64,000 bases of DNA, taken from positions 13,114 to 77,113 of the forward strand of contig MNVE01000009.1 in the NCBI GenBank assembly GCA_001871475.1. Direction: 5' to 3'. The notes beneath the pieces were generated by a model, which was given only the letters and a program-made list of their open reading frames with translations, was not told where the DNA came from and made no database searches. A program made the translations under genes and the position numbers. Below, one piece after another: positions 4,784 to 61,852 of this stretch. The DNA comes from Candidatus Micrarchaeota archaeon CG1_02_47_40. Lineage in GTDB: Archaea; Micrarchaeota; Micrarchaeia; Anstonellales; CG1-02-47-40. Position 1 is the first letter of the stretch; each line of letters begins with the position of its first letter.

Positions 4784-4897
4784 CTCTTGTGTTAGGTTAT
4801 GTAAAGAGAGTTTATAAAGCTTGTGGGAGTGTGTTTGAGGATGTGGTTAATGCCTTTCTCTCCTTGCAACCCTGCCAATTTAAATGTTTAACTAATC

Positions 4898-4920
4898 ATA
4901 ATTACCTTTTAGGTAATTAT
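4898..4920. promoter_or_regulatory. perfect inverted repeat ATAATTACC-N5-GGTAATTAT immediately upstream of the AbiEi-1 start; putative autoregulatory operator
   Basis: Palindrome read directly from the sequence and ending 1 bp before ATG 4921. AbiEi antitoxins are known autorepressors that bind inverted repeats. Confidence 0.4.
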
Positions 4921-5712
4921 ATGAAATCAAAAATAAGAGAGCGCGGGGGAATTGGAAAATTAGGCGCAAGACTCCTTTCCAAGATAAGTGCCAAAGAAAA
5001 AGAGGTTTTTACAGTAAAAGAAGCGGAAGAGGAGCTTGGCATGAAAGGAGGGAACTTGAGAAAACTGCTCTTCTCTCTAAACAGGAACGGATGGGTTGAG
5101 AGAATAGAGAGGGGAAAATACCTAATCCTGCCACTGGAAGCAGGCGCAAAACCAGACTACGGCACCCATCCATACATCATTGCCAGAAAGCTTGCAAATC
5201 CGTATTATATTGGCTTTGCGTCTGCGCTCAATTATTACGGGATAACGGAACAGGTTGGCAGAACCATTTATACCGCAACCTTAAAGTCAAAACTGCCTCT
5301 TGCCTTCCACTCGGAAAATTACCGCTTTGTCTGCCTTTCAAAAAAGCGTTTTTTTGGAGTAAGAGAGGAATGGATTGGCAATCTGAAATTCAATATCTCG
5401 GATAAGGAGAAAACGCTCATTGACTGCCTTTACCTGCCCGAATACGGCGGCGGCTTGAGCGAAACAGCAAAAACCTTTCGTGAAAAGCTTGATTATGAAA
5501 AATTATACGGTTATGCAGTTCGCATGAAGGATTTGGCAGTGTTAAAGAGGCTTGGATATCTTTTGGATATTCTGAAGGTAAAGACAAAGATAAAGGGAAT
5601 GCTGCTTGAAAAGATTGCCGGAGGGTATTGCCTTCTTGATACCTGCGGAGCAAATGAAGGAAAGAAAAATAAGAAATGGCGCGTAATTGAAAATGTGGAG
5701 GTGGAAGAATGA
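4921..5712 (+). CDS. AbiEi-like antitoxin/transcriptional regulator (TA module 1)
   Basis: N-terminal wHTH and a C-terminal SALNYYG-type AbiEi motif. It overlaps the downstream nucleotidyltransferase gene by 4 bp. The internal ATG at 4921 is preferred over ORF start 4789. Confidence 0.6.
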   Translation: MKSKIRERGGIGKLGARLLSKISAKEKEVFTVKEAEEELGMKGGNLRKLLFSLNRNGWVERIERGKYLILPLEAGAKPDYGTHPYIIARKLANPYYIGFASALNYYGITEQVGRTIYTATLKSKLPLAFHSENYRFVCLSKKRFFGVREEWIGNLKFNISDKEKTLIDCLYLPEYGGGLSETAKTFREKLDYEKLYGYAVRMKDLAVLKRLGYLLDILKVKTKIKGMLLEKIAGGYCLLDTCGANEGKKNKKWRVIENVEVEE

Positions 5713-6497
5713 TAACACAAAACACGCTCGCGCAAATATCAAGGAAGGAAGGCATAGGCTGGACTGTGGTGGAGAAGGATTATTTCCTTACACTGCTCCT
5801 TGACGCGATTGCGAACACTCCCTTCCTCCATGAAAACCTCATATTCAAGGGAGGCACTGCATTAAGGAAAGCATACTTTGGGGATTACCGGTATTCGGAG
5901 GATTTGGATTTTACGCTGAAAAAGGAGCTCGGAAGCGAAGAGGTACGGAGTTCGTTTGAAACTGCGCTTGCCTACTTGGAAGAGAAATACAATGCAAGCC
6001 TTGCCATAAAGGATTTTGACAGCAAGAGGCATTTCACAGATGTGAAAGTGCAGTTTGTCGGCTTGAAGGGCAATAAAAACAAAATTGCCGTGGATTTGAT
6101 TGCCGATGAGATAATTGTGGATGAGCCTCTTGAAAGGAAGATTTTGAATATTTATTACAAAAAAGAGTTTTCGATGAAAGTTTATTCGCTTGAGGAGATT
6201 GTTGCTGAAAAATTGAGGAGTTTTATGCAGAGAACGAGGGTAAGGGATTATTATGACGTATGGTATCTTCTAAAGCACGCCAATCTTGATAGGAAAAGGA
6301 TTGCGGAAATTTTCTCAAAAAAGGTTGAATACAAAAAACTCCCATTTGAAGGAAAGGAGAGACTTTTGAATGAGGAGAAGCTCGCGCAGGCAGAGGCTTA
6401 TTATGATTCGCAGATAGGCAACCAGCTCAAGAATTTGCCGCCTTTCAAAAAAATAGCTGATGAGTTGAGGAAAGAAATAGAAACGCTTGAGCTTTGA
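5709..6497 (+). CDS. AbiEii-like nucleotidyltransferase toxin (DUF1814)
   Basis: KGGTALRKAYFGDYRYSEDLDFT signature of the AbiEii/AbiGii family. Confidence 0.7.
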   Translation: MITQNTLAQISRKEGIGWTVVEKDYFLTLLLDAIANTPFLHENLIFKGGTALRKAYFGDYRYSEDLDFTLKKELGSEEVRSSFETALAYLEEKYNASLAIKDFDSKRHFTDVKVQFVGLKGNKNKIAVDLIADEIIVDEPLERKILNIYYKKEFSMKVYSLEEIVAEKLRSFMQRTRVRDYYDVWYLLKHANLDRKRIAEIFSKKVEYKKLPFEGKERLLNEEKLAQAEAYYDSQIGNQLKNLPPFKKIADELRKEIETLEL

Positions 6498-17089: not shown

Positions 17090-17851
17090 ATGATTGTAAT
17101 AAAAATAGGCGGAAGCGCCATCACGGATAAGGGGGGTTTTGAAAAGGCAAGAAAGGCAAGGATAGCGGAGATTGCGAAAGTAATAGCAGGGGCAGCAGAA
17201 AAGGGAAACGAGCCGCTAATTCTTGTGCATGGGGCGGGCTCTTTCGGGCACCCCCAGGTGATTAAATATAAGATAGCTGATGGAGTGCGTACTAAGAAGC
17301 AGGAGATTGGATTTGCGAAAACACATGCGAGCGTGCTGAAGCTTTCTTATTTGCTCATGAGGGAATTTGAAAAGAATGGGATGAAAGTTTGTTTATTTTC
17401 ACCGATTCATTTCATCCTGCAGGAGAAAGGAAAAATAAAAGAGTTTGACACGCTCTCTATTATGCGGGCGCTTGAAAAGAAAATTACTCCTCTTCTGCAC
17501 GGGGATGTGGTGTTTGATACCGTGCTTGGAGGGAGCGTGTGCTCTGGCGATAAGGTTGTTTCCCATTTGGGAAGGAAGGCAAAGAGAGTGATTTTCATTA
17601 CTGAAGTGAATGGTATATTGGATGGTAAGGGAAAAACCATTCGGAAGATTGGCAGGGAAGATTTGGAAAAGTTAAAAGGAGTTATAGGAAAGGCAAGAGG
17701 GCATGACGTTACTGGGGGCATGAAGGAAAAATTGCGGGAGATTATGAAAATCGGAAAACCGACATTTATTGTGGGGGCGGGAAATCTGAAGGGAATTGAA
17801 AACCTTATTTTAGGGAAAAAAGAAGAGAAGTGCACCAAAATTGTTTCCTAA
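17090..17851 (+). CDS. ipk: isopentenyl phosphate kinase (amino-acid-kinase fold)
   Basis: MIVIKIGGSAITDKG N-terminus and LILVHGAGSFGH motif. The start is set at the internal Met. Confidence 0.7.
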   Translation: MIVIKIGGSAITDKGGFEKARKARIAEIAKVIAGAAEKGNEPLILVHGAGSFGHPQVIKYKIADGVRTKKQEIGFAKTHASVLKLSYLLMREFEKNGMKVCLFSPIHFILQEKGKIKEFDTLSIMRALEKKITPLLHGDVVFDTVLGGSVCSGDKVVSHLGRKAKRVIFITEVNGILDGKGKTIRKIGREDLEKLKGVIGKARGHDVTGGMKEKLREIMKIGKPTFIVGAGNLKGIENLILGKKEEKCTKIVS

Positions 17852-19182
17852 GTGCCGTGCTCCCAAGCCGTTGAGTATTCTATTTGCTCTTTTGTCGGCT
17901 TTGGGAGAATTATTCCCTGCGAGAAGAGCGCCAATCTTGCAACCTCATCATCTATTCCGCAAGGCACGCTTATCACGCCTGCTTTCAGCTTCCCTTTATT
18001 CTTCACTAAGTATTCTGCCGAAAGCGCCTGCACTGCAAAGGAGCCATCCATTATTTCTATCGGATGCCCCTGCCCGGAAGGGCGCGCCAGATTCACCAAT
18101 CTTCCCTCTGAAAGGAGGTAAATGCATTTTCCATTTTTGAGAGTGAAGCACTCCAGATTCTCCTTGAGCACTTCTTTTCTTGCGCCCTTTTTTGTAATCC
18201 CCTCTATATCTATTTCGTTGTTGAAATGCCCCGCGTTGCAAACTATCGCGCCGTTTTTCATCTTTTCAATGTGTGAAACGTCTATCGCATTCTTGTTGCC
18301 TGTTGCGGTTATGAAAATGTCCCCTAATGAAGCCGCCTCATCAATTCCCATCACCCTAAAGCCGTCGTAGAGCGCTTCCAGCGCGCGGTGGCAGCCGGAT
18401 TCGCGCTTCTGTTGCGCGGAGGCGGGTTTGCATGCCCCGTCCTCCGTCCCGATTCCGCTTTCTCCAAGCCTGCTTCCTATCTCGCAAACTATTACGCTTG
18501 CGCCCATTCCCCGCAAACGTGAGGCAATTCCCCTTCCGCACCAGCCGTATCCGAGCACAACTGCGGTTTTTCCCGCAATCAGCTTGTTTGTTATTCTCAT
18601 TATCGCATCCAATGTGCTCTGCCCTGTGCCATATCTATTATCAAATAGATGTTTTGAGTATGCGTCATTCACGCTCATTACTGGAAATTTCAGCTTGCCT
18701 GCACTCTGCATCGCTTTCAGCCTTATCACCCCGGTGGTGGTTTCCTCGCACGCGCCTATTATTTGCGGGAGGAGTTCTTGCCGCTTGCCATGCAATAGGT
18801 TAATCAAATCGCATCCGTCATCTATCACTATTTGGGGCTTCTGCTCCAGCACTGCATTCAGACATCCATAATATTCTTCCTTTGACTGCCCGCTCCATGC
18901 AAATATTTCCATCTTCTTTGAGAGGGCGGCTGCAACAGAATCATCCGTTGTAAGCGGGTTGCAGGAAGAGGCGGCAATTTCTGCCCCGCCGGCTTGCAGA
19001 GTCTCAAGCAGTATGCCTGTTTTCTTCTCAAGATGCAATGCAACGGAGATGCGCACTCCTTTCAGGGGTTTTTCCTTCTCAAATCTTTCCCTTATTCCTG
19101 AAAGTATGGGCATGTTTTCCCTTGCCCAGGAAAGCTCTTTTTCTCCGGCAGCTGAAAGTGATATGTTTTTTACTTTGCTCAT
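17848..19182 (-). CDS. ahcY: S-adenosyl-L-homocysteine hydrolase, with an approximately 27-aa in-frame insertion in the NAD-binding domain
   Basis: Conserved SAHH blocks (NLLHGKRQ, GYGWCGRG). The usual EIDPI..ALQAAMEGY stretch is replaced by EIGSRLGESGIGTEDGACKPASAQQKRESGC-HRALEALYDGF. Confidence 0.85.
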   Translation of the reverse strand: MSKVKNISLSAAGEKELSWARENMPILSGIRERFEKEKPLKGVRISVALHLEKKTGILLETLQAGGAEIAASSCNPLTTDDSVAAALSKKMEIFAWSGQSKEEYYGCLNAVLEQKPQIVIDDGCDLINLLHGKRQELLPQIIGACEETTTGVIRLKAMQSAGKLKFPVMSVNDAYSKHLFDNRYGTGQSTLDAIMRITNKLIAGKTAVVLGYGWCGRGIASRLRGMGASVIVCEIGSRLGESGIGTEDGACKPASAQQKRESGCHRALEALYDGFRVMGIDEAASLGDIFITATGNKNAIDVSHIEKMKNGAIVCNAGHFNNEIDIEGITKKGARKEVLKENLECFTLKNGKCIYLLSEGRLVNLARPSGQGHPIEIMDGSFAVQALSAEYLVKNKGKLKAGVISVPCGIDDEVARLALFSQGIILPKPTKEQIEYSTAWEHGT

Positions 19183-20158: not shown

Positions 20159-20187
20159 AAAGGTTTATATATCTCTAATTATAGATA

Positions 20188-20207
20188 ATATCACTAAAAA
20201 GTGATAT
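20188..20207. promoter_or_regulatory. palindrome ATATCAC-N6-GTGATAT (and near-palindrome TATCTCTAATTATAGATA at 20166-20190) upstream of TA-like module 3
   Basis: Read directly from the sequence. Lies immediately upstream of the likely ATG at 20210. Confidence 0.35.
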
Positions 20208-20209
20208 AT

Positions 20210-20875
20210 ATGAAACCGACAAGCAGAGAAACCTACAGAATTATTCGCGCAATGCTGCGGATGAAAAGATTTACCCAATATGAGATAAGCAAAAAGGAAA
20301 AAATTACTTTCAGCCTCGTAAACCGCACGGTCAATTGGTTTGTTCAGCATGGATATGCTGCAAAACGGGAAGGGGAATATGAAATAACTGCGCCTGCTGC
20401 AATATTCGGGCTTTTCCCCCTCTACCGGAGCCTCAAGCCATACGCTGTTTTTGATGTGAATGTGAAAAGGGAGCGGGCTTTGGGGTTGGTAAAGAAAAGG
20501 GGGGCGCTGTGCCTGACCAGCGCGCTCTCATATCACGGCGACTATTATCGCGACCCGGCAGTTCATGCTTATCTTGATGATGAAAAAATTATTGAAGAAT
20601 TAAAACGAATGCCAAAGGGTTACTGCCGCATTGAACTTTACAGGGAAGATTTGAATAAGGATGATTTTGAGCAGACGAAGTCTGCGAAATACGTGTCCGA
20701 TGGAGGAAACCGGCAAAGGTTTCCGACAGACTTGTCCGAAGGACAAGCAGAAGGACACGGTATTGAGAAAGCAGGTAAGTATATCGTAACGAACAAAATT
20801 AGAACGATAATTGATTTGTTTTGCGCCAACAAGGCGTATGCGGCTGAAGGATTGATTAAAACGGAGTGGGCTTGA
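20210..20875 (+). CDS. AbiEi-like wHTH regulator (module 3); C-terminal region overlaps a hairpin repeat element
   Basis: N-terminal wHTH and a SALSYHGDYY AbiEi-type motif. Nucleotides 20669-20700 and the palindromes at 20704-20747 match the repeat family seen at 61741-61773. Confidence 0.4.
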   Translation: MKPTSRETYRIIRAMLRMKRFTQYEISKKEKITFSLVNRTVNWFVQHGYAAKREGEYEITAPAAIFGLFPLYRSLKPYAVFDVNVKRERALGLVKKRGALCLTSALSYHGDYYRDPAVHAYLDDEKIIEELKRMPKGYCRIELYREDLNKDDFEQTKSAKYVSDGGNRQRFPTDLSEGQAEGHGIEKAGKYIVTNKIRTIIDLFCANKAYAAEGLIKTEWA

Positions 20876-21610
20876 ATGAAAGAGCTTTACGCAAAGGAGA
20901 TTACCGATTCTAGCCTGAAAGAATTGGAGGAAATGGCGCGCTGGTACAATGAAAAAATCGGGAATTATCCGATTATTGTCGGAGGCTGGGCGGTTTATTT
21001 TTACATCGGCGGGCTTGGCTCAAAGGATATTGATGTCGTGTTCCTTGGCGACAGGGCGAAGGATGCGACTTTGGCGGCGTATTTCCATTCCCATGGATAT
21101 GCTGAAAAGCGCAGGGATTTTTTTGATAAGGAATACGTGAAAAAAGTGAAGGCAGGAGATAGGGAAATTGAGATAATAATAGACGCGGTTTCTGCAAAGA
21201 GAACAATTCTTTTTGACGGAAAAGACGCAAGAATCCCCTGGAGCCTGGCTGCAAAGCATAATGTTGAACGGAAAATAGGCTCGGCGAGTGTTTGTTTGCC
21301 GACTAAAGAACTGCTCCTGACATACAAACTTGGCGCGGTCTTGGGAAGAAGCATTCTTCTAAAAACAAGCCCTGAATTTGATTATTACCGCTCAAAGCTT
21401 TGGAAGGATGTTTATGATGCTGCCAGCTTGGCGGGCTTGAAGATTGAGCAGAAGACTGTTTGGGGGTTTCTTGGGCAGACCGGGCTGAAAAAATACGCTA
21501 AAGAAATAATGCAGATTATAGAGGCAAACTTTGATGAAGAGGCGAAATCGCTTGCGGGAGAGGAAGGTTTTCTGAAGATTAGAGGGATGCTTGGGGAAGA
21601 TTGGAGGTAA
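20876..21610 (+). CDS. nucleotidyltransferase-fold protein (non-DUF1814 type), putative toxin partner
   Basis: GGWAVYFYIGGLGSKDIDVVF fits the G[GS]x(n)DhD minimal NTase motif. The gene starts 1 bp after the upstream stop. Confidence 0.45.
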   Translation: MKELYAKEITDSSLKELEEMARWYNEKIGNYPIIVGGWAVYFYIGGLGSKDIDVVFLGDRAKDATLAAYFHSHGYAEKRRDFFDKEYVKKVKAGDREIEIIIDAVSAKRTILFDGKDARIPWSLAAKHNVERKIGSASVCLPTKELLLTYKLGAVLGRSILLKTSPEFDYYRSKLWKDVYDAASLAGLKIEQKTVWGFLGQTGLKKYAKEIMQIIEANFDEEAKSLAGEEGFLKIRGMLGEDWR

Positions 21611-21628: not shown

Positions 21629-23857
21629 TCACTGCTTTCCAGCCAGCACGTATTTTATCAGCTGTTCGCCTGAAGAGGAGAAGCGTATCGTGCTTATCGG
21701 AGTTTCGTAGCTCTCTATCGTTTTTGCGCTGTCAGCAATTGCAGCCGCAAACTCAACCGGTGCGCTGTAATTAAGGAGACTTGAGAGTATGATGTTTGTC
21801 ACCTCTCCTCTTCCGGTTGAGGTGTAGGAGATGAAATTAAGGTTTGTGTTCGGATTTGCCATTAAGTAGTCTGCTGTTGAGCCTGCACTGCCGCAGCTTC
21901 CGGGAATGAAGAGGATGTTTCCGGTGCTGTTTGAAAAGATGTTTGCAGGGAAGTTGTCATTCAGAGAATAAGAATGCCCTCTGAAGGTGAAGACGAGGTT
22001 TTGGTATTCGGATAACTTCTCTTTTATGAAGGATTGATTTTCCTGTTCATTTTCACCCATGTAGATAATTATTCTTCTGCCTCCCTTTTCATAGATGAAT
22101 TCGTTTTCAGAAGCCTTCTTCGGCGCTCCGTATTCTTTTTTGAACCGGTCTTTGGTCAGGCTCCAATGATCGTCTCTTTGCATGTCCTCCCTGTCAAATA
22201 CCTGCACTGCGGTTATGAAGCCGTCAGAATTGAGGTAACTGTTTGGGTTGAATTTGGTTTGTTTTTGGAGGTTTGCAATTTCTTGCTTTTGGGAGTTTGA
22301 AAGGAGGGTTGTTTCTGGATTGAGCAGATAAAGGGAGTATTCAAGGGCTCTCTGGATTTGTTTTTCCGACTCTGGAATTGCGGTCAGCCTTTCGGTTATG
22401 ATGCCCTGGAGCTTCTCCTTGTTTAGGACTTCCGACTTAATTGCGCTGTTTATTCCGTTTGCAAGAAGGGAGTAGTATTGCGCGTCAAAAACGGTGTTTG
22501 AGATTGGGGTTATAAGCGCCTTTGCCGCGCTGTTTATTTCTTCTTTTTTTAAGAGGGAGTTTCCCCTCCCGAACAATCTGTCGTAGTTTATTGCACGGAA
22601 AAGGAAGTTTCTGCCCAGTTCGGAGTCAAAGGAAACTCCTGCTATTTCCTTTAGGTATTCCTCAACTGTTTTTCCTTTCAGGTCTTTTTTTAATCTGTCA
22701 AAGAGATGGTCGTTTGTAGAGGTGTAGAAATATTCCGGTTTTGAGCAGAGGAAGGAGAATACTTGAACTGTGGTTAGAGAGGAGAGATATTTCATTCTTT
22801 CAGGCGTGTTGTCATGCAAATCGTCTAACGGTCTTCCGAGTTCTATTGCGAACATTGTGGAAAGGTGAAAGAGAAGTTGAGTTATTGTTATGTCATTTCT
22901 TGTGTATTTTAGGAATGCATTGTTTTCATCTGGGTTTGAAAGAAGGGAGGAGAAGGAGCGGAATGCTCTCCAAGTGGCATCTCCTTGGGTGTTTGAGATT
23001 ATTGCAGTAAAGATGGGGTTCCAGTATCTGTCTATCCAGCTTTCATTGAAGTTTGGGTTTGAGAGAAGGAAGGAGAAGGAGCTGAATTCTTCCCAGGTGG
23101 CGTCTCCTTTGGTGTTTGAGATTATTGCGTTTACTGTTTGGATGAGGGTGTTGATAAGGTAAACCAGACTTTGCGGATTTATCCAATCTTCTTGGAAGTT
23201 TGGGTTTGAAAGAAGGAAGGAGAAGGAGCTGAATGCGTATCTGGTGGCGTCTCCTTGGGTGTTTGAGGTTATTGCGTTTGTCGTTTGGATGAGATTGTCA
23301 ATAAGATATTGTTCGCTTTGCGGGTTTATCCAGTCTTCTGTGAAGTTTGGGTTTGAAAGAAGGGAGGAGAAGGAGCGGAATACTCTCCAAGTGGCATCTC
23401 CTTGGGTGTTTGAGATTATTGCGTTTACTGTTTGGATGAGGGTGTTGATAAGGTAAACCAGACTTTGCGGAGTTATCCAATCTTCTTGGAAGTTTGGGTT
23501 TGAAAGAAGGAAGGAGAAGTAGCTGAATGCGTAATAGGTGGCGTCTCCTTGGATGTTTTTTGCTATGTAAAGAGCTGTTTCAAAGGCTTTTTCATTGAAG
23601 TTTGGGTTTGAAAGAAGGGAGGAGAAGGAGCGGAATGCTCTCCAAGTGGCATCTCCTTGGGTGTTTTTTAGTATATGCGCGACCGCAGCATAAACGATTG
23701 TGTTTTCCTGCATCTTTTTCTTTATATCTGGCGGGATTTCGCTTTCTCTCTGTTTTATTATGTCATTCATCCAGGGTTCTATTATCGGAGTTGGGATGGT
23801 TTGGGATAAGCCGCTTGGCTTCTCTGTTTCTTGAAAGCGTATTTGGAAAATCAGCAT
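21629..23857 (-). CDS. large repeat protein: about seven ~45-aa tandem repeats N-terminal, C-terminal region with possible caspase/CHAT-like His...Cys dyad
   Basis: Repeat unit NTQGDATWRAFRSFSSLLSNPNF(N/Q)EDWI.PQS..YLI..LIQT.NAI.S. The C-terminal part reads RRIIIYMG...FTFRGHSYS...ILFIPGSCGSAGS. Confidence 0.5.
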   Translation of the reverse strand: MLIFQIRFQETEKPSGLSQTIPTPIIEPWMNDIIKQRESEIPPDIKKKMQENTIVYAAVAHILKNTQGDATWRAFRSFSSLLSNPNFNEKAFETALYIAKNIQGDATYYAFSYFSFLLSNPNFQEDWITPQSLVYLINTLIQTVNAIISNTQGDATWRVFRSFSSLLSNPNFTEDWINPQSEQYLIDNLIQTTNAITSNTQGDATRYAFSSFSFLLSNPNFQEDWINPQSLVYLINTLIQTVNAIISNTKGDATWEEFSSFSFLLSNPNFNESWIDRYWNPIFTAIISNTQGDATWRAFRSFSSLLSNPDENNAFLKYTRNDITITQLLFHLSTMFAIELGRPLDDLHDNTPERMKYLSSLTTVQVFSFLCSKPEYFYTSTNDHLFDRLKKDLKGKTVEEYLKEIAGVSFDSELGRNFLFRAINYDRLFGRGNSLLKKEEINSAAKALITPISNTVFDAQYYSLLANGINSAIKSEVLNKEKLQGIITERLTAIPESEKQIQRALEYSLYLLNPETTLLSNSQKQEIANLQKQTKFNPNSYLNSDGFITAVQVFDREDMQRDDHWSLTKDRFKKEYGAPKKASENEFIYEKGGRRIIIYMGENEQENQSFIKEKLSEYQNLVFTFRGHSYSLNDNFPANIFSNSTGNILFIPGSCGSAGSTADYLMANPNTNLNFISYTSTGRGEVTNIILSSLLNYSAPVEFAAAIADSAKTIESYETPISTIRFSSSGEQLIKYVLAGKQ
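22870..23740. repeat. approximately 135-bp tandem coding repeats (about 7 copies) inside the repeat-protein gene
   Basis: Recurring DNA blocks such as gaagtttgggtttgaaagaagg...gtggcatctccttgggtgtttgagattattgc visible on the plus strand. Confidence 0.7.
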
Positions 23858-26876: not shown

Positions 26877-26899
26877 ATAATAAACAAATTGTTTATTAT
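26877..26899. promoter_or_regulatory. perfect inverted repeat ATAATAAACAA-A-TTGTTTATTAT upstream of AbiEi-2
   Basis: Read directly from the sequence; it ends 4 bp before ATG 26903. Confidence 0.4.
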
Positions 26900-26902
26900 T
26901 GC

Positions 26903-27511
26903 ATGTCAAAGCTGAAAATTACCGAGGAGGTGCTCAAGGCAGTTGAATCTTCGCCATTTGGCATCGCTTCCTTGGAAGTGCTTGGAAGCCTTCAGCTCTG
27001 CTCCTTCCCTACCCTCAAAACCACGATTAGCAGGCTGAACAGGGCAGGCAGGATTATCAGGGTGAAAAGAGGCGTTTATTCCGCAACTCCTGTGCGGGAC
27101 CCTTATGCGCTTGCACAGGCGATTTTTGGCGGTTATGTTGGCTTCTCGGGAGCGCTTTATCTGCATAAGTTGAACACGGAGATGCCCTTCACTATTATCA
27201 TTGTCACGCCGCACCTCTCCAAAACAAGAAGTTTTGGCGAGTATGAGTTTAGGGCAGTCGCATTGGGAGATAGGGCGGTCGGGTTTGAACGGCTTGGAAA
27301 TTGCAATGTTTCAACGAGGGCGAAAACGCTCTTTGACTGCCTTTACCTTCCGCACTATTCCATAGAGGGACAGAAGCTCGTTGAGGCGTTTTCGCAGGCA
27401 AAGCTTGAAAGGAAGGAATGGAAAGAGTTTGAGTATTATGTCAAGAAATTTGCGGGAAAAAAGGCGGCAGTAGATATGTTTGAGGTAAAAAAGCTTATTC
27501 AAAGGAGTTGA
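26903..27511 (+). CDS. AbiEi-like antitoxin/regulator (TA module 2)
   Basis: wHTH N-terminus (LKTTISRLNRAGRIIRVKRGVY) and an SGALYLHKL AbiEi-type motif. Confidence 0.55.
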   Translation: MSKLKITEEVLKAVESSPFGIASLEVLGSLQLCSFPTLKTTISRLNRAGRIIRVKRGVYSATPVRDPYALAQAIFGGYVGFSGALYLHKLNTEMPFTIIIVTPHLSKTRSFGEYEFRAVALGDRAVGFERLGNCNVSTRAKTLFDCLYLPHYSIEGQKLVEAFSQAKLERKEWKEFEYYVKKFAGKKAAVDMFEVKKLIQRS

Positions 27512-27515
27512 TAAA

Positions 27516-28298
27516 ATGGAAATCAATCTTGAGGTGTGCAGGACTATTGCGGTGCAGTATGGGCTGCCCCTGCAGTTTGTCGCAAAGGAGTTCTACGTGT
27601 TTGACGTGCTCGGGCAGATTGCTGAACTGACTGCGGGAAAGAAGGAGCTTGTTTTCAAGGGAGGAACCGCGCTCAACAAGATTTACCTTGGGAAAATGCA
27701 GCGCTTTTCAGAGGATTTGGATTTTGATTTGAGCGCGGAGAGGGAGATTGGGCTGACGGAGTATTGCAGGAAGCTTGCAAAGGGGATTGAAGGCTACAAA
27801 ATAGGTGAATTTCGAAAAGTGCGCGGCACGCTGCAGCTTTACTGCGGCTTTGAAAGCCTGCTTGGCGGAACTGATCATGTTAGGATTGACATTGCCGCAA
27901 AAAAAATAATCACGCAAAACCCTACCGCGCTCGGAACTGCCTCCTCTTCGTATGCAGGGCGCTCCGTCGCAGGAATTAATGTGTATTCCCTTGAGGATTT
28001 GTGCGCAAGGAAGCTTTGCGCCCTCTGCGTTAGGGGGGAGGGAAAGGATTTTTACGACGTGCATAATGCCCTGCCTTTATGCGGCAGGATGAAGGGGGCG
28101 ATTGAAAAAATGCTCTTAAGCGAAGGAAGCGGGCAAACTGCGGAGGAATTTTTGGAGAAGGCAACTGCAACGGTAAAAAAGGCGGATGCAAAAAAACTTC
28201 GCAATCTTGCAAACCCGTTCATACCTGCAGGCTGCCGTCCAAAGGATTGGCTGGAGCTGAAAAACGACCTTGCAATGAAACTGGAAATGCTGGGGTGA
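27516..28298 (+). CDS. AbiEii-like nucleotidyltransferase toxin (DUF1814)
   Basis: FKGGTALNKIYLGKMQRFSEDLDFD signature. Confidence 0.7.
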   Translation: MEINLEVCRTIAVQYGLPLQFVAKEFYVFDVLGQIAELTAGKKELVFKGGTALNKIYLGKMQRFSEDLDFDLSAEREIGLTEYCRKLAKGIEGYKIGEFRKVRGTLQLYCGFESLLGGTDHVRIDIAAKKIITQNPTALGTASSSYAGRSVAGINVYSLEDLCARKLCALCVRGEGKDFYDVHNALPLCGRMKGAIEKMLLSEGSGQTAEEFLEKATATVKKADAKKLRNLANPFIPAGCRPKDWLELKNDLAMKLEMLG

Positions 28299-33751: not shown

Positions 33752-33838
33752 ATTGGCGGGTAAGTTGGAGAGGACGATGAAGGGGAAGCGATTGAAATGG
33801 AAAAAAACATAATTGTCCGCGGAGCGCGCGAGCATAAC

Positions 33839-33907
33839 CAACAGCGAAGCTGTTGGGCCGTGTCCGCAAGGACACGTAGTGCGAGAGCGTGATGAATATG
33901 CAAAATA
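33839..33907. repeat. double-hairpin element (CAACAGC-GAAG-GCTGTTG and CGTGTCC-GCAA-GGACACG) flanked by imperfect ~30-bp direct repeats of the uvrA 5' end
   Basis: 33809-33838 (ataattgtccgcggagcgcgcgagcataac) resembles 33908-33936 (the uvrA start). The two hairpins lie between. Confidence 0.5.
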
Positions 33908-41513: not shown

Positions 41514-41739
41514 AAGATTTTCTCCTTCTAATTCCTCGCATGAGCGACCAGAGTTATTTTCAGGAGCTAGCCAAAGCCGGAAGCGGAAAGCCGCAAAGCA
41601 AAGTCGGGAGATTGGAAGGGATGGGAATGAGCGAACGGGGAGTTTATGAAGAGCTTGTGAAGTTCGGCATTCCAAAATTGGATGCGGGGATAATAACAGA
41701 CTGCCTGAACATGGAGAAGGCGTGCATGTGGCAGAATGA

Positions 41740-42125
41740 TGAGGATGGTTTGCAACGAGGGCGTTCTGCCAGCTCGTTGCAAAATTTTGAAAAAGCGCAG
41801 GGTAACCGTACAAGGGGCGCTTTTTCAAATGTTTCGCTGGAAGCGGTTGGGAAAGTGAATGAGTTTGTGAAGGGGAAGGGGCTTGGCATGAAGGTTGAGG
41901 CATCGGCTGGAAGGTATGGGAAGGTAGTTTGGGAAGTGAGGAAACCGCAAGGGTTGACACCGAAGGTGTCAAATTTTGACGCAGAAGCGTCAAATGTTTC
42001 CGAACGATTTGAAAGTTCCGAAGAACTTTCAAAATTTTGAAACGCAAAGCGTTTCAAACGTCTTGACGCGAAACCGACAGCTTTGCTGTCGGAACTTGCG
42101 CAGAGCGCAAGTAGAGCGTCAAGCG
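41740..42125. repeat. hairpin-dense non-coding region (at least 8 consecutive perfect palindromes, many with GAAG/AAA loops); candidate structured ncRNA or cluster of mini-repeat elements
   Basis: Palindromes TTGCAACGAG...CTCGTTGCAA, TTGACACC-GAAG-GTGTCAA, GTCAAATTTTGAC, GACGC-AGAA-GCGTC, TTGAAAGTTC-CGAAG-AACTTTCAA, TTTCAAAATTTTGAAA, TTGAAACGC-AAA-GCGTTTCAA, CCGACAGC-TTTG-CTGTCGG and CTTGCGC-AGA-GCGCAAG, all read directly. Confidence 0.55.
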
Positions 42126-44190: not shown

Positions 44191-44994
44191 ATGAAGAGAA
44201 TTTGCATTCCTGTATTTGACTGCAAAATGCTCAAAGAGGCGGCAGAAAAAACTGATTTGGTAGAGGTTAGGCTGGATAGGTTTGGGAAAAGGGAGAGGGA
44301 AAAACTCGCGGAAATAGCAAAAAAAATTAAAGCAAAACTCATCCTCACGATAAGGAAAAAAAGCGAGGGCGGGATTGAGCGGACGGGAGTCCGCGAAAGA
44401 TTTGACTCCCAAGAGTCAAACTGCCCGAAGCGGAGCAAGGGCGGGATTGAGCGGACGGGAGTCCGCGAAAGATTTGACTCCCAAGAGTCAAACTGCCCGA
44501 AGCGGAGCAAGGGCAGGAAGTTTAAAGGGAATGAACGCCAGAGGCTGGCGCTTTTTTTGGAAATGCTTAAAGCAGCAAGATTCGCATACGCCGATATCGA
44601 ACTTTCAAGCGGCAGGAAATTCATTGAAAAGGTAAGAAAAAAAGCAAAAGAGGCAGGCGCAAAGCTCATTCTCTCAAAGCACTATTTTGCCGGCACTCCA
44701 AGCAGGAAGGAGTTTTTGCAAACATATGCAAAAATGAAGAAGCTTGGCGCGGATATTTGTAAAATAGTAGGAACTGCAAGAAGTGAAAGAGACTGCGGGA
44801 ATGCAATGGAAGCGCTGAAAAAGGCAAAAAAAGACACTGCCATCTTCTTCTGCATGGGAAAGAAAGGAAAAAATACAAGAAGCGAGTGCTTAAAATTCGG
44901 CGCTCCTTTCACTTATGCCTCTTTAAAGAAAGGAAAGGAGAGTGCGAAAGGACAGTATGACTTTGGGAAGATGACAAAGCTACTCGAAGGATAA
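44191..44994 (+). CDS. aroD: 3-dehydroquinate dehydratase type I, carrying an in-frame 2x24-aa tandem insertion after the conserved EGG motif
   Basis: ICIPV...VEVRLD, LILTIRKKSEGG, ADIELS, KLILSKHYF and CKIVGTA blocks. The insert is GIERTGVRERFDSQESNCPKRSKG repeated twice. Confidence 0.7.
   Translation: MKRICIPVFDCKMLKEAAEKTDLVEVRLDRFGKREREKLAEIAKKIKAKLILTIRKKSEGGIERTGVRERFDSQESNCPKRSKGGIERTGVRERFDSQESNCPKRSKGRKFKGNERQRLALFLEMLKAARFAYADIELSSGRKFIEKVRKKAKEAGAKLILSKHYFAGTPSRKEFLQTYAKMKKLGADICKIVGTARSERDCGNAMEALKKAKKDTAIFFCMGKKGKNTRSECLKFGAPFTYASLKKGKESAKGQYDFGKMTKLLEG
44367..44510. repeat. perfect 72-bp tandem duplication (2 copies) inside aroD, internally palindromic (GAGTC...GACTC-CCAA-GAGTC)
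   Basis: The identical 72-bp unit gggcgggattgagcggacgggagtccgcgaaagatttgactcccaagagtcaaactgcccgaagcggagcaa occurs twice consecutively. Confidence 0.8.
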
Positions 44995-55787: not shown

Positions 55788-55933
55788 GCAGGGGTGCCAG
55801 AGTTTGGTCAATTGGGCAGGACTTAAGAGCGCACTGGCGCGATGAAATCCTGTGGACTAGCTCCTTCGCAGGTTCTCGCAAATAATGCCAATATCGGGGC
55901 ATTGCTGGCGGCCTAAAAATCCTGCCCCCTGCA
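55788..55933 (+). tRNA. tRNA-Leu(UAA) with two introns (about 19 nt at the canonical 37/38 site and about 41 nt in the T-loop); mature length about 86 nt
   Basis: Manual fold: acceptor GCAGGGG/CCCCUGC; D-stem CCA/UGG; anticodon stem CAGGA/UCCUG; loop CUUAAGA (anticodon UAA); long variable arm GGA-CUAGC-UCC; T-stem GCAGG/CCUGC; T-loop UUC[intron]AAAU; discriminator A followed by TTTT. Confidence 0.7.
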
Positions 55934-55973
55934 TTTTGCTTGCAAAATGCGGGGCCTTGTCCGCAAGGACAAG
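55931..55973 (+). terminator. tRNA trailer: oligo-T plus two hairpins (GCATTTTGC-TT-GCAAAATGC and CTTGTCC-GCAA-GGACAAG, a GNRA tetraloop)
   Basis: Palindromes read directly from the sequence. Archaeal tRNA transcription terminates at T-runs. Confidence 0.35.
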
Positions 55974-56071
55974 TGTCCCCTGCATTCATTTATTTTTCTT
56001 CTTTTCCTTCCTCAAAACCAAAGGTTTATATGCTTTGTATTACGAAACTATCGTTTGGAGATAGTATTGTT

Positions 56072-56878
56072 ATGCAAAAGATAAAACGTTTCGGAGAGAT
56101 GGAATTGCGGCTCATGTTCACGCTTGAACAGCGCGAGAATCAGCTGTTCAGCATTGCGGATGCCAAGCGCATACTCGGCAGTTCAGACGCTTCCGTTTGG
56201 AATGTGCTCAAGCGCCTGATGAAAAAAAGAAGGGTTATCCGCCTGCAGAGGGGCGCCTATCTTTTTGCCCCGCTGCGCAGCGGCGAGGAGGGCTTATGGT
56301 CGGAAGATGCGTTTCGGGTGGTCCCCATGCTCGTAGGAAAGAGAAGATTTTACATCGGTTTTGTTTCAGCTATGAATCACTGGGGGATGACGGAGCAGCT
56401 GCCCATAGTGGTTTATGTTGCCCTGAAACGCCAGAAAAGAGGCATTGATGCGGTGCAGTCCCGGTTTGTTTTCGTCAAAAAAAAGCGGCTTGGGAAGTTT
56501 TTGCAGATTTCTCTAGGCGATACGAAGGTTAATATTTCCACGGTTGAGCAGACGATACTGGACGGGCTGTCCTTCCCGGAATACTGCCTTGGAATCGCCG
56601 GAATTGCCAAGGCAATCTGGTTTGTGCAAAAAGATATTGAGTGGCAAAAGCTTCTTTCCCTTGCAAAAAGCGAAAAAAACGCCGTGCGGAGGCGTTTGGG
56701 ATATCTTCTTGAGATTCTTGGTTTCAGAAGGCAGGCAAAGGAGTTGGAAGGTGTTTTTTCCGGCTATTTCTGGCTGGACCCGTCAAATCTGAGGGATGAC
56801 TTTGAATATTCAAAAAAATGGGGATTGAAGATAAATCTGAAAAAACGGGATTTGCTTGAATTCATGGAGGTGCACTGA
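56072..56878 (+). CDS. AbiEi-like antitoxin/regulator (TA module 4)
   Basis: wHTH (SIADAKRILGSSDASVWNVLKRLMKKRRVIRLQRGAY) and a FVSAMNHWGMTEQLP AbiEi motif. Start set at an internal Met. Confidence 0.55.
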   Translation: MQKIKRFGEMELRLMFTLEQRENQLFSIADAKRILGSSDASVWNVLKRLMKKRRVIRLQRGAYLFAPLRSGEEGLWSEDAFRVVPMLVGKRRFYIGFVSAMNHWGMTEQLPIVVYVALKRQKRGIDAVQSRFVFVKKKRLGKFLQISLGDTKVNISTVEQTILDGLSFPEYCLGIAGIAKAIWFVQKDIEWQKLLSLAKSEKNAVRRRLGYLLEILGFRRQAKELEGVFSGYFWLDPSNLRDDFEYSKKWGLKINLKKRDLLEFMEVH

Positions 56879-57628
56879 ATGAACGCCGAAGAATTGAACA
56901 GGAAGGCGGTATCCGCCGGCATTCCGCGTGCAATAATGGAAAAGGATTACGTGCTTTCGGTTGTGCTCTTCCATATTTCAAAATCCGTCCTTGCTGAAAG
57001 GATGCTTTTCAAGGGAGGCACTGCACTCAAGAAGGTTTATTTTCCCGATGCAAGATTTTCCGAAGATTTGGATTTTGCTGCACGGGCATCTGATGAGAGG
57101 ACGATAATGGATGAACTGAAGTCGCTTTTTGAAGACAGAGAACTCAAAGGCATCAGATTCGCATTCCTGGAAAAAGAAAGGTCGCACGCGGGCTTGAGGG
57201 CCGCCCTGAAATTTTCCTTCATTCTCGGGCATACGCAGAGAATCCGCTTTGATTTCAGTTTCCGCGAAAACGTCGCGTCAAAGCCGGAGAAAAGGGCGAT
57301 TGTGGATGAATATAATCTTGGCAATGCGGAATTGCTTGTGATTCCGCTTGAGGAGCTGTTTGCGGAAAAAATTAACGCGCTTTTTGGAAGAATTGCCGTC
57401 AGAGATTTGTATGATGTCTGGTTTCTGTTCAAACGCGGCATAAAGGCGGATAAGCTGATGATAAAAAGGAAGTTTGCCTATTACAATGAAGAATACGAAC
57501 CCTCAAAACTGAAAGGAAGGATAAACTTGTTCAGAAAAGACTGGAAGAGAGATTTGGCTCAATTCATGAATGACGTTCCGGATTTTGATGGAATTGCGGA
57601 TGAAACTGTGAAATTTCTTGAAGAATAA
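56879..57628 (+). CDS. AbiEii-like nucleotidyltransferase toxin (DUF1814)
   Basis: FKGGTALKKVYFPDARFSEDLDFA signature. It starts 1 bp after the upstream stop. Confidence 0.7.
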   Translation: MNAEELNRKAVSAGIPRAIMEKDYVLSVVLFHISKSVLAERMLFKGGTALKKVYFPDARFSEDLDFAARASDERTIMDELKSLFEDRELKGIRFAFLEKERSHAGLRAALKFSFILGHTQRIRFDFSFRENVASKPEKRAIVDEYNLGNAELLVIPLEELFAEKINALFGRIAVRDLYDVWFLFKRGIKADKLMIKRKFAYYNEEYEPSKLKGRINLFRKDWKRDLAQFMNDVPDFDGIADETVKFLEE

Positions 57629-59178: not shown

Positions 59179-59904
59179 TTAAAAATCCATTTTGATTTTC
59201 TCTTTAGCGGAATATAATTCAGGCAAGTGCTTTTCGCTTATTCTGAAACCAGCCCCATGGTCCCTAACTGATCCATTTTCTTTAATGTGCATGCGAAATT
59301 CCCAAACAATCACGCCATCAAGCAGCAGCTGTTCAAAATTCTCTTCGCTTAAATCGGAAAGGAAATAAGCTTCAGTATAATGGAATTGCTCTTTGCGTCT
59401 TTTCTTTCGTGTTTCGGCAAACACTATCAGCAGATTTTGGGATAATTTTTCTTTTATCTTGCCCATTAATTCTTTGATTTCAAAATAGCAAACGGCCCCA
59501 TTTTTTTTATGAATTATGTTAATCCTGTTGAGGGGCTTATTAATTTCCAATTTGAGCCTGTGCGTATTAAAATCAACGGCAGTAATTGTCACCTTTAATC
59601 CTTGTCTGCCTTTTGCGTCAGAATAGCCATATTTTCTTATTATTTTTTCGGCAGATAATGGATTCCAATGAGGCGATTTTGTTATCAAAGTCACTCTAGA
59701 ACTGGCAGTTGCTCGCTGGGATTTCAACTCTATTATTCGTCCTTCAAACTGAAAATCATTGGAAACGTTGTTTTCAGGTATGCCGAATAGCTCTTCAAGA
59801 GTTTTGCCTATGCCCGTGTTTCCTGAACGAAGCGATTCTATAAAACCCAATTTATAGATTCCCTTGAGCTTTTTTCTGAAATTTATAACTGGAAGCTTGC
59901 CCAT
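59179..59904 (-). CDS. MvaI/BcnI-family type IIP restriction endonuclease
   Basis: The C-terminal block IVFAETRKKRRKEQFHYTEAYFL...DGVIVWEF...RDHGAGFRI matches remembered BcnI/MvaI conserved blocks. Adjacent to a convergently arranged methyltransferase. Confidence 0.55.
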   Translation of the reverse strand: MGKLPVINFRKKLKGIYKLGFIESLRSGNTGIGKTLEELFGIPENNVSNDFQFEGRIIELKSQRATASSRVTLITKSPHWNPLSAEKIIRKYGYSDAKGRQGLKVTITAVDFNTHRLKLEINKPLNRINIIHKKNGAVCYFEIKELMGKIKEKLSQNLLIVFAETRKKRRKEQFHYTEAYFLSDLSEENFEQLLLDGVIVWEFRMHIKENGSVRDHGAGFRISEKHLPELYSAKEKIKMDF

Positions 59905-59946
59905 AGCGGGGCTTGCTCAATACAGAGTTATAAACCGCACACGCGC

Positions 59947-61640: not shown

Positions 61641-61644
61641 TGAT

Positions 61645-61800: not shown

Positions 61801-61852
61801 TCAAATGAGCTAATTCTTCCCTTCGCTCTTCCCGCAAAAATAAGCGCGCTTC

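Follow-up and report, generated by a model that had tools for sequence, protein, structure and literature searches.

This locus raises two questions: whether a pair of adjacent genes on the forward strand of a micrarchaeal genome forms a toxin–antitoxin (TA) module and of which kind, and what the repeated sequence inside the first gene represents. The analysis of the 64,000-nt stretch of DNA that contains the pair (hereafter, the window) points, with a probability of about 70%, to a diverged archaeal TA module of the AbiE/MenAT class, the first gene of which carries an in-frame hairpin-repeat insertion found in this lineage only. An AbiE-type system is ordinary in itself; the version present here is strongly diverged and archaeal.

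The reading frame of gene 1 (+) has two possible starts, at 20,201 and 20,210, and ends at 20,875; judged from the orthologs, the ATG at 20,210 is the true start, giving a product of 221 aa. The TGA stop codon directly abuts the ATG of gene 2 (20,876–21,610), which lies on the same strand. A TATA-box-like sequence, TTTATATAT (20,164–20,172, +), was read 5′ of gene 1 as a putative promoter element, and a counterpart, TTTAAATATAT, occurs at equal distance in the orthologous loci L125 and L126. A hairpin scan also revealed a perfect palindrome, ATATCACT-AAAA-AGTGATAT (20,188–20,207), that ends 2 nt before the ATG and is a candidate operator for the winged-helix protein of gene 1; its part TATCACTAAAAAGTGATA is identical in L126 and partly kept in L125. 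According to the same scan, palindromes also lie just upstream of canonical AbiEi genes of the window (26,877–26,899 and 4,898–4,920). The gene order is strictly conserved, with the gene 1 homolog always directly upstream of the nucleotidyltransferase (NTase) gene, and the reading frames abut or overlap in the four unrelated neighbourhoods examined (L125–L128), one of which adjoins an integrase. Homologs of the two genes carry adjacent locus tags in several metagenome-assembled genomes, and one protein (P0218) is a natural fusion of a gene 1-type protein with an NTase. The layout, in which gene 1 stands directly 5′ of the NTase and has an inverted repeat in its promoter as expected of an AbiEi gene, agrees with the arrangement of the window's three canonical AbiE pairs. 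Judged from sequence, the description of the pair in the first-pass annotation as a TA-like module, in which a winged-helix regulator precedes an NTase, is putatively upheld.

Gene 2 encodes a 244-aa protein that had been taken for an NTase from the peptide GGWAVYFYIGGLGSKDIDVV (residues 36–55). The predicted structure (AF2 model, pLDDT 92) could have contradicted this assignment; it agreed with it, having a confidently modelled NTase fold. A Foldseek search of the model against the PDB returned the NTase-like 5uvd (E = 4.8e-6) and the toxin MenT1 (4.7e-5), as well as ANT(2″)-Ia and LnuA; the MenT1 chains 8an5_B and 8an4_B had E-values of about 5e-5 and a probability of 1.00, but TM-scores of only 0.35–0.54. 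Among 23 sequences of the family, the residues G36, G37, S49, D51, D53, D103, K151, R158, K177, D178, and D181 are invariant. They cover pol-beta motifs I and II (V35-G36-G37, 13 residues, D51-I52-D53), which fit the pattern hG[GS]-x(9-15)-DhD, a third carboxylate on the next strand (D103), and the AbiEii motifs III (YK151LGA154VLGR158, KLxAaxxR-like) and IV (WK177D178VYD181). The earlier statement that the AbiEii signature is absent from gene 2 was therefore wrong. In hhalign, motifs III and IV were paired with EKLxxxxxR and RDxYD of the canonical AbiEii proteins, and the alignment with these three proteins was weak (E = 0.018, probability 2.5%). The published motif definitions place an arginine, R63 of Streptococcus agalactiae AbiEii, within motif II (PMC3985639). 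That arginine is missing from the gene 2 family, in which the position four before D51 is occupied by L, F, or I, and K/R stands at −1 of D51 instead (GS[KRV]DID). The canonical AbiEii copies of the window read RFSEDLDF at motif II.

The first-pass annotation had further proposed that gene 2, a minimal NTase merely coupled to an AbiEi-type antitoxin, represents a toxin family of its own outside DUF1814/AbiEii. The missing arginine, the spacing of 13 residues between GG and DxD (15 in AbiEii), and the failure of the window NTase to match any Pfam, NCBIfam, PADLOC, or PDB sequence model (for Pfam even at E ≤ 1) are in line with such a proposal; most of the distant family members are likewise without a Pfam match, and searches of PDB sequences with both proteins and both family profiles returned no AbiE or MenT relatives. 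However, the DUF1814-specific motifs III (K..R) and IV (+DxxD) show no variation, and an ortholog with 53% identity to gene 2 over 98% of its length (P0060) scored 29.0 bits against PF08843, above the cut-off of 22.5 bits, over profile positions 34–218. AbiEii matches were obtained for 5 of the 23 family members. A profile built from 193 sequences retrieved the three canonical AbiEii proteins among its top five non-self matches in the 289 open reading frames of the window, with collinear motif regions, and MenT1 is among the top fold matches. Since AbiEii motifs I–IV are present and P0060 passes the Pfam threshold, we regard the gene 2 family as a diverged DUF1814 subfamily, and a distinct toxin family appears unlikely. 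The family profile matches 418 clusters at 50% identity, mostly from DPANN archaea.

An alternative concerns function: the pair may not be a TA module at all but a transcription regulator next to a benign NTase, for example, one that nucleotidylates small molecules or antibiotics in the manner of ANT(2″)-Ia or LnuA. The fold matches to these two enzymes have E-values only about tenfold weaker than that of MenT1, and weak similarity to Aminoglyc_resit was found in the fused homolog P0218 and a DUF2204 match in P0083. Against this stand the DUF1814-specific motifs of gene 2, the strict gene order with abutting or overlapping frames in changing neighbourhoods, and the architecture shared with the three canonical AbiE pairs, so that we consider a benign enzyme improbable.

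The product of gene 1 (20,210–20,875, +) is regarded as a putative, tentatively AbiEi-like antitoxin and autorepressor with a winged helix and a C-terminal domain, on the basis of its homologs, weak AbiEi matches, and the natural fusion. Its 92 homologs have a typical length of 189 aa, and the AF2 model predicts a winged helix-turn-helix fold. The PADLOC AbiEi models matched gene 1 itself only weakly (E = 0.01, aa 188–218); many family members also gave weak matches, the best at E = 2.6e-5, and twelve different models were touched. None of 16 family members matched the Pfam AbiEi models (PF13338, PF09407, and PF17194). The comparison of the gene 1 family with the three AbiEi proteins of the window by hhalign was also weak (E = 0.15), with a collinear alignment that pairs ALCLTSAL with yIGFxSAL and ITxKIRTIIDLF with NISxxEKTLxDCL, and a search of the window with the family profile did not recover the canonical AbiEi proteins. 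Gene 1 thus encodes a winged-helix protein with weak similarity to AbiEi.

The AbiE systems of Lactococcus and Streptococcus agalactiae (PF08843/DUF1814 toxins with COG5340-type antitoxins) resemble the pair in being bicistronic operons with the antitoxin first and an inverted repeat before the operon, tentatively in the N-terminal winged helix and C-terminal domain of the antitoxin, and in a toxin with the pol-beta NTase fold, motifs I–IV, and Ser/Thr two positions before the first catalytic Asp. On the other hand, the window proteins are too diverged to be recognised by any curated AbiE model, the toxin differs in the GG–DxD spacing and the motif II arginine noted above, the antitoxin is shorter (189 aa without the insertion) with a C-terminal domain that is not demonstrably AbiEi-like, and the distribution is archaeal, mainly DPANN. 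The MenAT systems of Mycobacterium tuberculosis (MenT1 and MenT3) offer a second comparison, MenT1 being a compact DUF1814 NTase and one of the best structural matches to gene 2, whereas the MenA antitoxins are unrelated to gene 1 and similarity is undetectable at the sequence level.

By analogy with MenT and AbiEii, the gene 2 product would add nucleotides to tRNA 3′ ends and thereby arrest translation. The gene 1 protein would repress the operon through the conserved palindrome, which overlaps the putative transcript start, and would neutralise the toxin, most probably through binding to it, which would trigger auto-phosphorylation of the invariant Ser49, as proposed for MenAT. This residue, located two positions before the first catalytic Asp, corresponds to the phospho-acceptor positions T65 of AbiEii and S78 of MenT3 (bioRxiv 10.64898/2026.01.19.700257), and its modification is predicted from position. 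Such a neutralisation model is supported by work on known systems (bioRxiv 10.64898/2026.01.19.700257; PMC11375011). Toxicity, the tRNA target, phosphorylation, and repression are accordingly attributed to the present pair only as probable properties.

The second question concerns a 96-nt in-frame insertion in gene 1 (20,669–20,764, +), recognised from homolog comparison, folding, and a repeat match, that encodes the 32 residues EQTKSAKYVSDGGNRQRFPTDLSEGQAEGHGI (154–185 of the 221-aa protein). It consists of hairpin 1 (GCAGAC-GAA-GTCTGC), CGAAA, and the long hairpin 2 (TACGTGTCC...GGACACGGTA), whose loop holds two further hairpins. A TTGAG direct repeat flanks the insert, and the exact boundary within this repeat is ambiguous. 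All six frames of the insert are free of stop codons, and it folds much more stably than shuffled sequences, both as RNA (−42.6 kcal/mol, z = −6.3) and as DNA (−24 kcal/mol, z = −5.9). Positions 20,667–20,704 are 89% identical (34 of 38 nt) to 61,739–61,776 (blastn within the window, E = 1.4e-7). None of the 92 homologs of gene 1 has the insert, and this absence from orthologs, the comparison suggested with the first-pass annotation, agrees with an element origin. That annotation had delimited a repeat-like segment at 20,669–20,750 and supposed that the C-terminus was element-derived. The segment is indeed hairpin-rich and recurs at 61,739–61,776, and repeat-derived sequence does occur in gene 1, but the actual insert is longer, comprising 32 codons, and forms an internal loop; the true C-terminus, that is, the last 36 residues (EKAGKYIVTNKIRTIIDLFCANKAYAAEGLIKTEWA), is conserved family sequence and contains the sole AbiEi-like stretch of the protein.

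In the AF2 model, the insert lies between two strands and is predicted to be a disordered loop (pLDDT < 50). The preferred reading is that a copy of a genome-specific hairpin repeat entered gene 1 in frame, in this lineage only, at what would be a beta-hairpin turn of the C-terminal domain, and that it is probably translated as a 32-residue disordered loop with the remainder of the protein intact. The insertion may be neutral. It lies close to the only AbiEi-like motif of gene 1 and could impair the antitoxin.

The repeat belongs to a family with several copies in the window. The core pattern TTGAGC-N6-24-GCGAAA was observed four times against 0.6 expected, a count reached in none of 100 shuffles, and hairpins with a C-GAA-G triloop five times against 0.57 expected. 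The closest counterpart of the gene 1 insert is part of an intergenic cluster of nested hairpin modules (61,640–61,810, +) located between the convergent genes 61,362–61,640 (+) and 61,853–62,323 (−); its core (61,739–61,790) lies within the loop of a 13-bp hairpin (TTTGAAAATCGCT...AGCGATTTTCAAA). The largest cluster in the window (41,740–42,125, +), with about ten hairpins, several of them nested, shares modules both with 61,640–61,810 and with the interior of the insert in gene 1. A related module occurs in frame in aroD as two tandem 72-nt copies (44,362–44,505, +), each composed of TTGAGCGGAC-GGGA-GTCCGCGAAA and a TTTGACTC-CCAA-GAGTCAAA hairpin. The Pfam model DHquinase_I matches the aroD product in two stretches, and in an alignment with PDB 6bmb the 48 additional residues fall within the conserved R...EGG motif; an aroD allele with a single unit (24 aa) also exists (P0188 and P0336). 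Another in-frame copy is found in the tail of L7Ae of the same genome. The fold z-scores of the in-frame copies were −6.3 and −3.8. A further ten kilobases past the end of the window contained one hairpin only. The repeats give rise to chimeric or collapsed assemblies, as in P0185 and in the one or two units of aroD, and to spurious annotated open reading frames over intergenic hairpin clusters.

It could be argued that the 96 nt are never translated, either because they are spliced out as an archaeal bulge-helix-bulge intron or because ribosomes bypass them, as happens in T4 gene 60 and at the mitochondrial byp elements; a 189-aa protein would be restored in both cases. Identical GAG codons flank the insert within the TTGAG repeat, a stable hairpin stands at its start, and the splicing endonuclease of Micrarchaeota (ARMAN) has a broad substrate range. 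By inspection, however, the beginning of the insert is not complementary to the exon that follows, nor are the two exon ends to each other, and the same holds for the aroD insert; no bulge-helix-bulge motif (two 3-nt bulges and a 4-bp helix) can therefore be drawn at either. The putative take-off codon is followed by neither a stop nor a rare codon, the insert is open in frame, and its length and that of the aroD unit (72 nt) are divisible by three, as expected under translation and needless for removal. We thus consider removal or skipping highly improbable. A mini-intein was likewise rejected, the insert being too short and the conserved blocks missing.

The shared sequence might instead be selected at the protein level, as a peptide repeat or linker comparable to PARCELs, with the hairpins as a by-product. 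The core is read in the same frame (IEQTKSAK/IERTGVRE) in gene 1, aroD, L7Ae, and two annotated open reading frames, and the aroD unit is duplicated in tandem, although the choice of frame is weakly informative because one of the other two frames contains TGA. In contrast, the sequence of hairpin 2 and its peptide differ completely between copies while the base pairing is always kept, many copies are intergenic, and the peptide is predicted to be disordered, which makes a selected peptide module very doubtful. A concatenated query of the module-encoded peptides against 5.8 billion proteins retrieved proteins of this same species only, with no sign of a wide spread at the protein level. PARCELs are also coding repeats with dyad symmetry at the DNA level that are shuffled within genomes, but they are 25-residue amphipathic domains in tandem tracts of proteins of unknown function, whereas the peptide of the hairpin family is not conserved between copies and its single units interrupt conserved enzymes.

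A further possibility is that the modules act as signals in RNA or DNA, for instance, for transcript 3′ ends, stability, or protein binding, and that the genic copies are regulatory rather than selfish. Relative to the gene in which it lies or which it follows, every copy in the window is in the sense orientation, and two clusters are located just downstream of open reading frames. Nevertheless, the order and content of the modules vary at every locus, and the insertion in gene 1 is unique among its 92 homologs. The Rfam covariance models gave no gathering-score match in the window and, for the four module regions at E ≤ 1, nothing relevant: bacterial sRNAs and a microRNA accounted for three weak matches (E = 0.18–0.82; 19–23 bits, where the gathering scores are near 40), of which one overlapped 41,740–42,125. 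In addition, a kink-turn reading failed on inspection, since neither the gene 1 copy nor that at 61,739 can accommodate the GA pairs. A functional signal is consequently judged quite improbable. A hammerhead-like three-way junction was also discarded: it would need CUGAUGA, but the core has G/U-A-U-U-G-A, and no Rfam match was obtained.

The reading that we favour for the repeat is a family of short hairpins, often nested and frequently closed by C-GAA-G triloops, that would spread or expand at the DNA level and, within genes, would be retained when an insert has a length divisible by three and brings in no stop in frame, in the manner of Rickettsia palindromic elements (RPEs). In its fuller form, the modules would represent a hitherto undescribed family of mobile elements in Micrarchaeota, palindromic, nested, and modular in build, that spread via single-stranded DNA hairpins and settle in protein-coding genes in a fixed frame without stops; we offer this form tentatively, as a possibility short of an even chance. 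The supposed route would involve C-GAA-G mini-hairpin loops and insertion into existing hairpin loops, on one strand only. Mobility is inferred from the scattered copies because neither a transposase, terminal inverted repeats, nor an empty-site allele was found in the sequence examined, and the way in which the repeat moves is likewise deduced. All hairpin copies found belong to this one species, except those of contig L123, which has a different G+C content; tblastn and blastn comparisons of L121, L123, and L124 with the window gave no match. A scan of 596 Gb of contigs with TTGAGCRGACGN{5,8}GCGAAA returned scattered single bacterial matches at chance level, and a scan of viral contigs returned none.

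Among known repeats, RPEs are similar in their features, with no match in sequence expected: they are multi-copy hairpin repeats of about 100 nt that lie in frame in unrelated genes, including housekeeping genes, and add a surface peptide in a consistent frame. The stop-free in-frame repeats of gene 1 (96 nt), aroD (2 × 72 nt), and the L7Ae tail correspond to this pattern. Unlike RPEs, which form fixed families of about 100–150 bp, the present elements have an archaeal host and consist of modular nested short hairpins in a different combination at each locus. We found no report of RPE-like elements for these archaea in the literature. REP/BIME elements, with their RAYT transposases, and MITEs share short imperfect palindromes, intergenic clusters, a strand-consistent orientation, and short direct repeats at the borders (here TTGAG and an imperfect 12 nt in aroD). 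They differ from the present family, for which no terminal inverted repeats or associated transposase were found in the sequence examined and in which copies within coding sequence are prominent. A strict MITE was rejected since the two ends of the 96-nt insert lack reverse complementarity, and a MITE-type target-site duplication of fixed length since the flanking repeats are unequal (5 nt in gene 1 and 12 nt in aroD).

With respect to the TA module, these results assign to the AbiE/MenAT NTase toxins a sizeable group of about 418 clusters, largely of DPANN origin, that Pfam, NCBIfam, and PADLOC do not detect, and thereby extend the annotation of this class; gene 2 offers a compact diverged example for the generality of antitoxin-induced auto-phosphorylation. 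The insert is the more interesting part, as a notable case of repeat DNA inside the coding sequence of a tiny archaeon. The looped antitoxin and its 189-aa orthologs form a natural experiment on the effect of such inserts, which might do no harm, be deleterious, or supply new protein surface. Should the modules prove mobile, repeat DNA would be tolerated within conserved enzymes and an antitoxin by a genome of about 1 Mb, and the family would be a second, independent phenomenon of the RPE type, this time in archaea. The mobile-element reading, if true, would thus provide an archaeal counterpart of RPEs that reshapes proteins (the antitoxin, aroD, and L7Ae) in an ultra-small genome.

The two genes of the locus lie on the same strand. 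Database entries COV61_04335 and COV61_04340, which share one contig of 231,582 nt, match the two proteins at 100% identity. Gene 1 was listed with a GTG start at 20201; because all orthologs open with MK(V/P)TS, translation probably begins at the ATG at 20210, and the protein is then 221 aa long. The gene 1 stop codon, TGA (20873–20875), abuts the start codon (ATG) of gene 2 (20876–21610, 244 aa). The upstream neighbours are ordinary, namely a PfkB kinase and an S-adenosylhomocysteine hydrolase. The downstream neighbour (21629–23857, minus strand) is a 742-aa repeat protein without a Pfam family, in which at least six repeats of 49 aa with the motif NTQGDATW..FSS(L/F)LSNPNF correspond to 147-nt tandem repeats at 22931–23677.

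The gene 2 protein had no sequence matches in Pfam, NCBIfam, PADLOC, or PDB. Across 23 aligned homologs, the invariant residues are G36, G37, W38, A39, G48, S49, D51, I52, and D53, as well as D103, A104, K151, A154, R158, K177, D178, and D181. AbiEii proteins are defined by the pol-beta motifs I and II (hG[GS]x15DhD), the family-specific motif III K...R (KLxAaxxR-like), and motif IV +DxxD (PMC3985639). All four motifs were found in gene 2; however, the spacing of motifs I and II is 13 instead of 15, and the Arg located within motif II of AbiEii is absent. The ortholog P0060 (53% identity) scored 29.0 bits against PF08843, whose cut-off is 22.5 bits, and covered most of the profile. AbiEii matches were obtained from 5 of the 23 family members, and some members matched the PADLOC AbiEii models. 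When a profile built from 193 members of the NTase family was compared with all 289 window ORFs (80 codons or longer), the three canonical AbiEii proteins ranked first, third, and fifth among the non-self matches, which fell on the motif I/II and III/IV regions. The AlphaFold model of gene 2 was confident (pLDDT 92), and its best PDB structure matches had the NTase fold: 5uvd, the DUF1814 toxin MenT1 (E about 5e-5), ANT(2'')-Ia, and LnuA. Since the motifs, the P0060 score, the profile ranking, and the model all concur, the distinct, non-DUF1814 toxin family that the first-pass annotation had proposed is not supported. Gene 2 encodes an NTase within the DUF1814/AbiEii superfamily, belonging to a diverged subfamily overlooked by curated models. 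The NTase family comprises 418 clusters (50% identity, E ≤ 1e-3), with source names including Micrarchaeota, Diapherotrites, MSBL1, Marsarchaeota and, more distantly, Nitrososphaerota.

Gene 1 encodes a winged-helix protein with a functional link to the NTase. In Pfam, its family produced only below-threshold wHTH matches (HVO_A0261_N, TrmB, HTH_45). The PADLOC AbiEi models matched family members weakly (best 2.6e-5) and the window protein with an E of 0.01 over residues 188–218 of the 224-aa ORF. The hhalign comparison of the family with the three window AbiEi proteins was not significant (E 0.15) and was collinear over the whole length, pairing LCLTSALSY with yIGFxSAL and ITxKIRTIIDLF with NISxxEKTLxDCL. 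These similarities support an AbiEi ancestry weakly; the functional coupling of the two genes is better supported. Their homologs abut or overlap at four loci with unrelated neighbours, one adjoined by an integrase, and carry neighbouring locus tags in several genomes. In addition, in the 502-aa protein P0218 from the representative library, an N-terminal half resembling the winged-helix protein of gene 1 (hhalign E 5e-6) is naturally fused to a gene 2-type NTase. P0305 (375 aa) is likewise extended at its N-terminus, by sequence with no relation to gene 1. A perfect palindrome, ATATCACT-AAAA-AGTGATAT (20188–20207), ends 2 nt before the gene 1 ATG, with a TATA-like TTTATATAT about 20 nt ahead of it. 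Both elements are kept in the ortholog locus L126 and partly in L125, and palindromes likewise occur just upstream of the canonical AbiEi genes of the window.

Apart from an insert in gene 1, both genes retain all invariant residues. All 92 gene 1 homologs are about 189 aa long and lack the 32-residue stretch EQTKSAKYVSDGGNRQRFPTDLSEGQAEGHGI, and the family HMM breaks the window protein exactly at this point. The insert (20669–20764, 96 nt) is flanked on both sides by the direct repeat TTGAG; its deletion in silico yielded GAT GAT TTT GAG AAA GCA GGT, i.e., the DDFEKA.G of the orthologs. No stop codons occur in any of its six frames. The segment forms a first hairpin and, after it, a long one with two more in its loop (RNA −42.6 kcal/mol, z −6.3; DNA −24 kcal/mol, z −5.9). 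The protein model shows it at low confidence (pLDDT below 50), as a loop that connects two strands and immediately precedes the conserved C-terminal helices. Most simply, the insert would be a tolerated, translated loop. The first-pass annotation had suggested that the C-terminus of gene 1 might be element-derived and that orthologs be compared for the segment. The comparison bore out a repeat-derived segment; the C-terminus itself is not element-derived, because the final 36 residues are conserved family sequence.

Copies of the repeat share a core of TTGAGC, hairpin 1, GCGAAA, and hairpin 2, a pattern occurring four times in the window (0.6 expected). The stretches 20667–20704 and 61739–61776 are identical at 34 of 38 nt. 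The sequence of hairpin 2 differs wholly between copies, with pairing always kept (CGTGTCC/GGACACG, CGTATCC/GGATACG, TTTGACTC/GAGTCAAA, TTTGAAAGTTC/GAACTTTCAAA, and TTGGGGCT/AGCCCCAA). The combination of modules varies from locus to locus, and nesting is frequent: the 61739 copy lies in the loop of a 13-bp hairpin, and the gene 1 copy carries about 50 additional nt within the GAA loop of hairpin 2. The clusters 41740–42125 and 61640–61810 have further modules in common. The window has 73 perfect hairpins with a stem of 7 bp or longer; shuffles have 12–23. C-GAA-G triloop hairpins occurred five times (0.57 expected), all on the plus strand and at module loci. C-G-closed GNA triloops are described as classic, extraordinarily stable DNA mini-hairpins (PMC13037366, PMC3201870), which hints at DNA-level structure. 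No Rfam family matched the modules.

The hypothetical proteins P0183 and P0184 (41540–42040 and 61588–62013) are mostly translated intergenic module clusters; at least P0184 extends into a real gene at either end and is probably a spurious annotation. P0185, from an ENA contig of 1316 nt, was compared with 41540–41790 and 61700–62013; in this predicted protein, a shared module, LQRG..SSLQNFE, links the N-terminal portion of ORF 41540 with the ORF over the 61640–61810 cluster, which reflects either an assembly chimera or recombination between repeat copies.

Repeat units were also found in other genes. In aroD (type I dehydroquinase, 44191–44994), two tandem in-frame 72-nt units (44362–44505) add 48 residues that break the conserved R...EGG motif in the alignment to PDB 6bmb and split the Pfam match in two; other assemblies carry a single-unit allele (P0188, P0336). 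A metagenome scan yielded four true core copies, one being locus 61739 itself. The L121 and L124 copies, both from this species and its 231-kb contig, were found in ribosomal protein L7Ae, within its C-terminal tail (L124 3913–4605, minus strand, outside the window, identical in L121; Pfam E 5.9e-23, residues 20–113 of 230). Besides the core module, this K/E-rich tail of about 105 aa includes three more hairpins; the reading frame is again the same (IEQTKSAK...NFDAEAS). The L123 copy, from another organism (G+C 39% vs. 46%), lies outside any long ORF. The core frame is identical in every coding copy (IEQTK.../IERTG...), which is only a weak indication, because one of the two alternative frames contains TGA. 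The peptide search detected no further host proteins outside this species.

The short ORF 33797–33892 begins with MEKNIIVRGAREHN, which duplicates the N-terminus of uvrA in diverged form, and continues into two hairpin modules (33838–33876) before a stop; the real uvrA start follows about 100 nt further on (MQNIVIRGAREHNLKN...). This looks like module insertion plus duplication of the uvrA 5' end. The S-adenosylhomocysteine hydrolase (17848–19182) has a 26-aa in-frame insertion relative to PDB 7r39, IGSRLGESGIGTEDGACKPASAQQKR (18403–18480, minus strand), which may be an older module copy; its DNA forms nested hairpins with a weak fold score (z −1.7).

Only the dispersed, differently assembled copies suggest that the repeat family may be mobile; neither a mobilising enzyme nor an empty site was found for it. 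The gene 1 insert most closely resembles the Rickettsia palindromic elements (PMC10969869), and the family shares some features with REP elements. Unlike MITEs, the insert lacks terminal inverted repeats, and unlike PARCELs, it has no conserved peptide. A full-text literature search did not find such elements described for Micrarchaeota. Overall, the first-pass observation held with corrections, and its interpretation only in part.

Three canonical AbiEi/AbiEii pairs are located at 4789–6497, 26903–28298, and 55940–57628 (Pfam AbiEii E 1e-23 to 1e-39). Two hairpin modules (55931–55973) lie just upstream of the third. A restriction-modification pair (59179–61272, minus strand), given in the gene table of L129 as an N6_N4 methyltransferase and an MvaI/BcnI-type endonuclease, adjoins the 61640–61810 module cluster and the third AbiE pair, and together they form a small defence neighbourhood.

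By analogy with the MenT toxins, the gene 2 NTase may modify tRNA 3' ends by nucleotidylation (AbiEii preprint, bioRxiv 10.64898/2026.01.19.700257; PMC7450476, PMC10435456). The palindrome 20188–20207 would be the site at which the gene 1 protein represses the operon, and the same protein would neutralise the toxin. Binding of AbiEi to AbiEii leads to auto-phosphorylation at T65, two residues ahead of D67, and the same is induced by the antitoxins MenA1 at T39 and MenA3 at S78 (bioRxiv 10.64898/2026.01.19.700257, PMC11375011). The invariant Ser49 of gene 2 occupies the position equivalent to T65. As a toxin-antitoxin system, the pair is a new, diverged AbiE-type member; with three canonical pairs in the same 64 kb, this small genome therefore carries at least four AbiE-type modules here.
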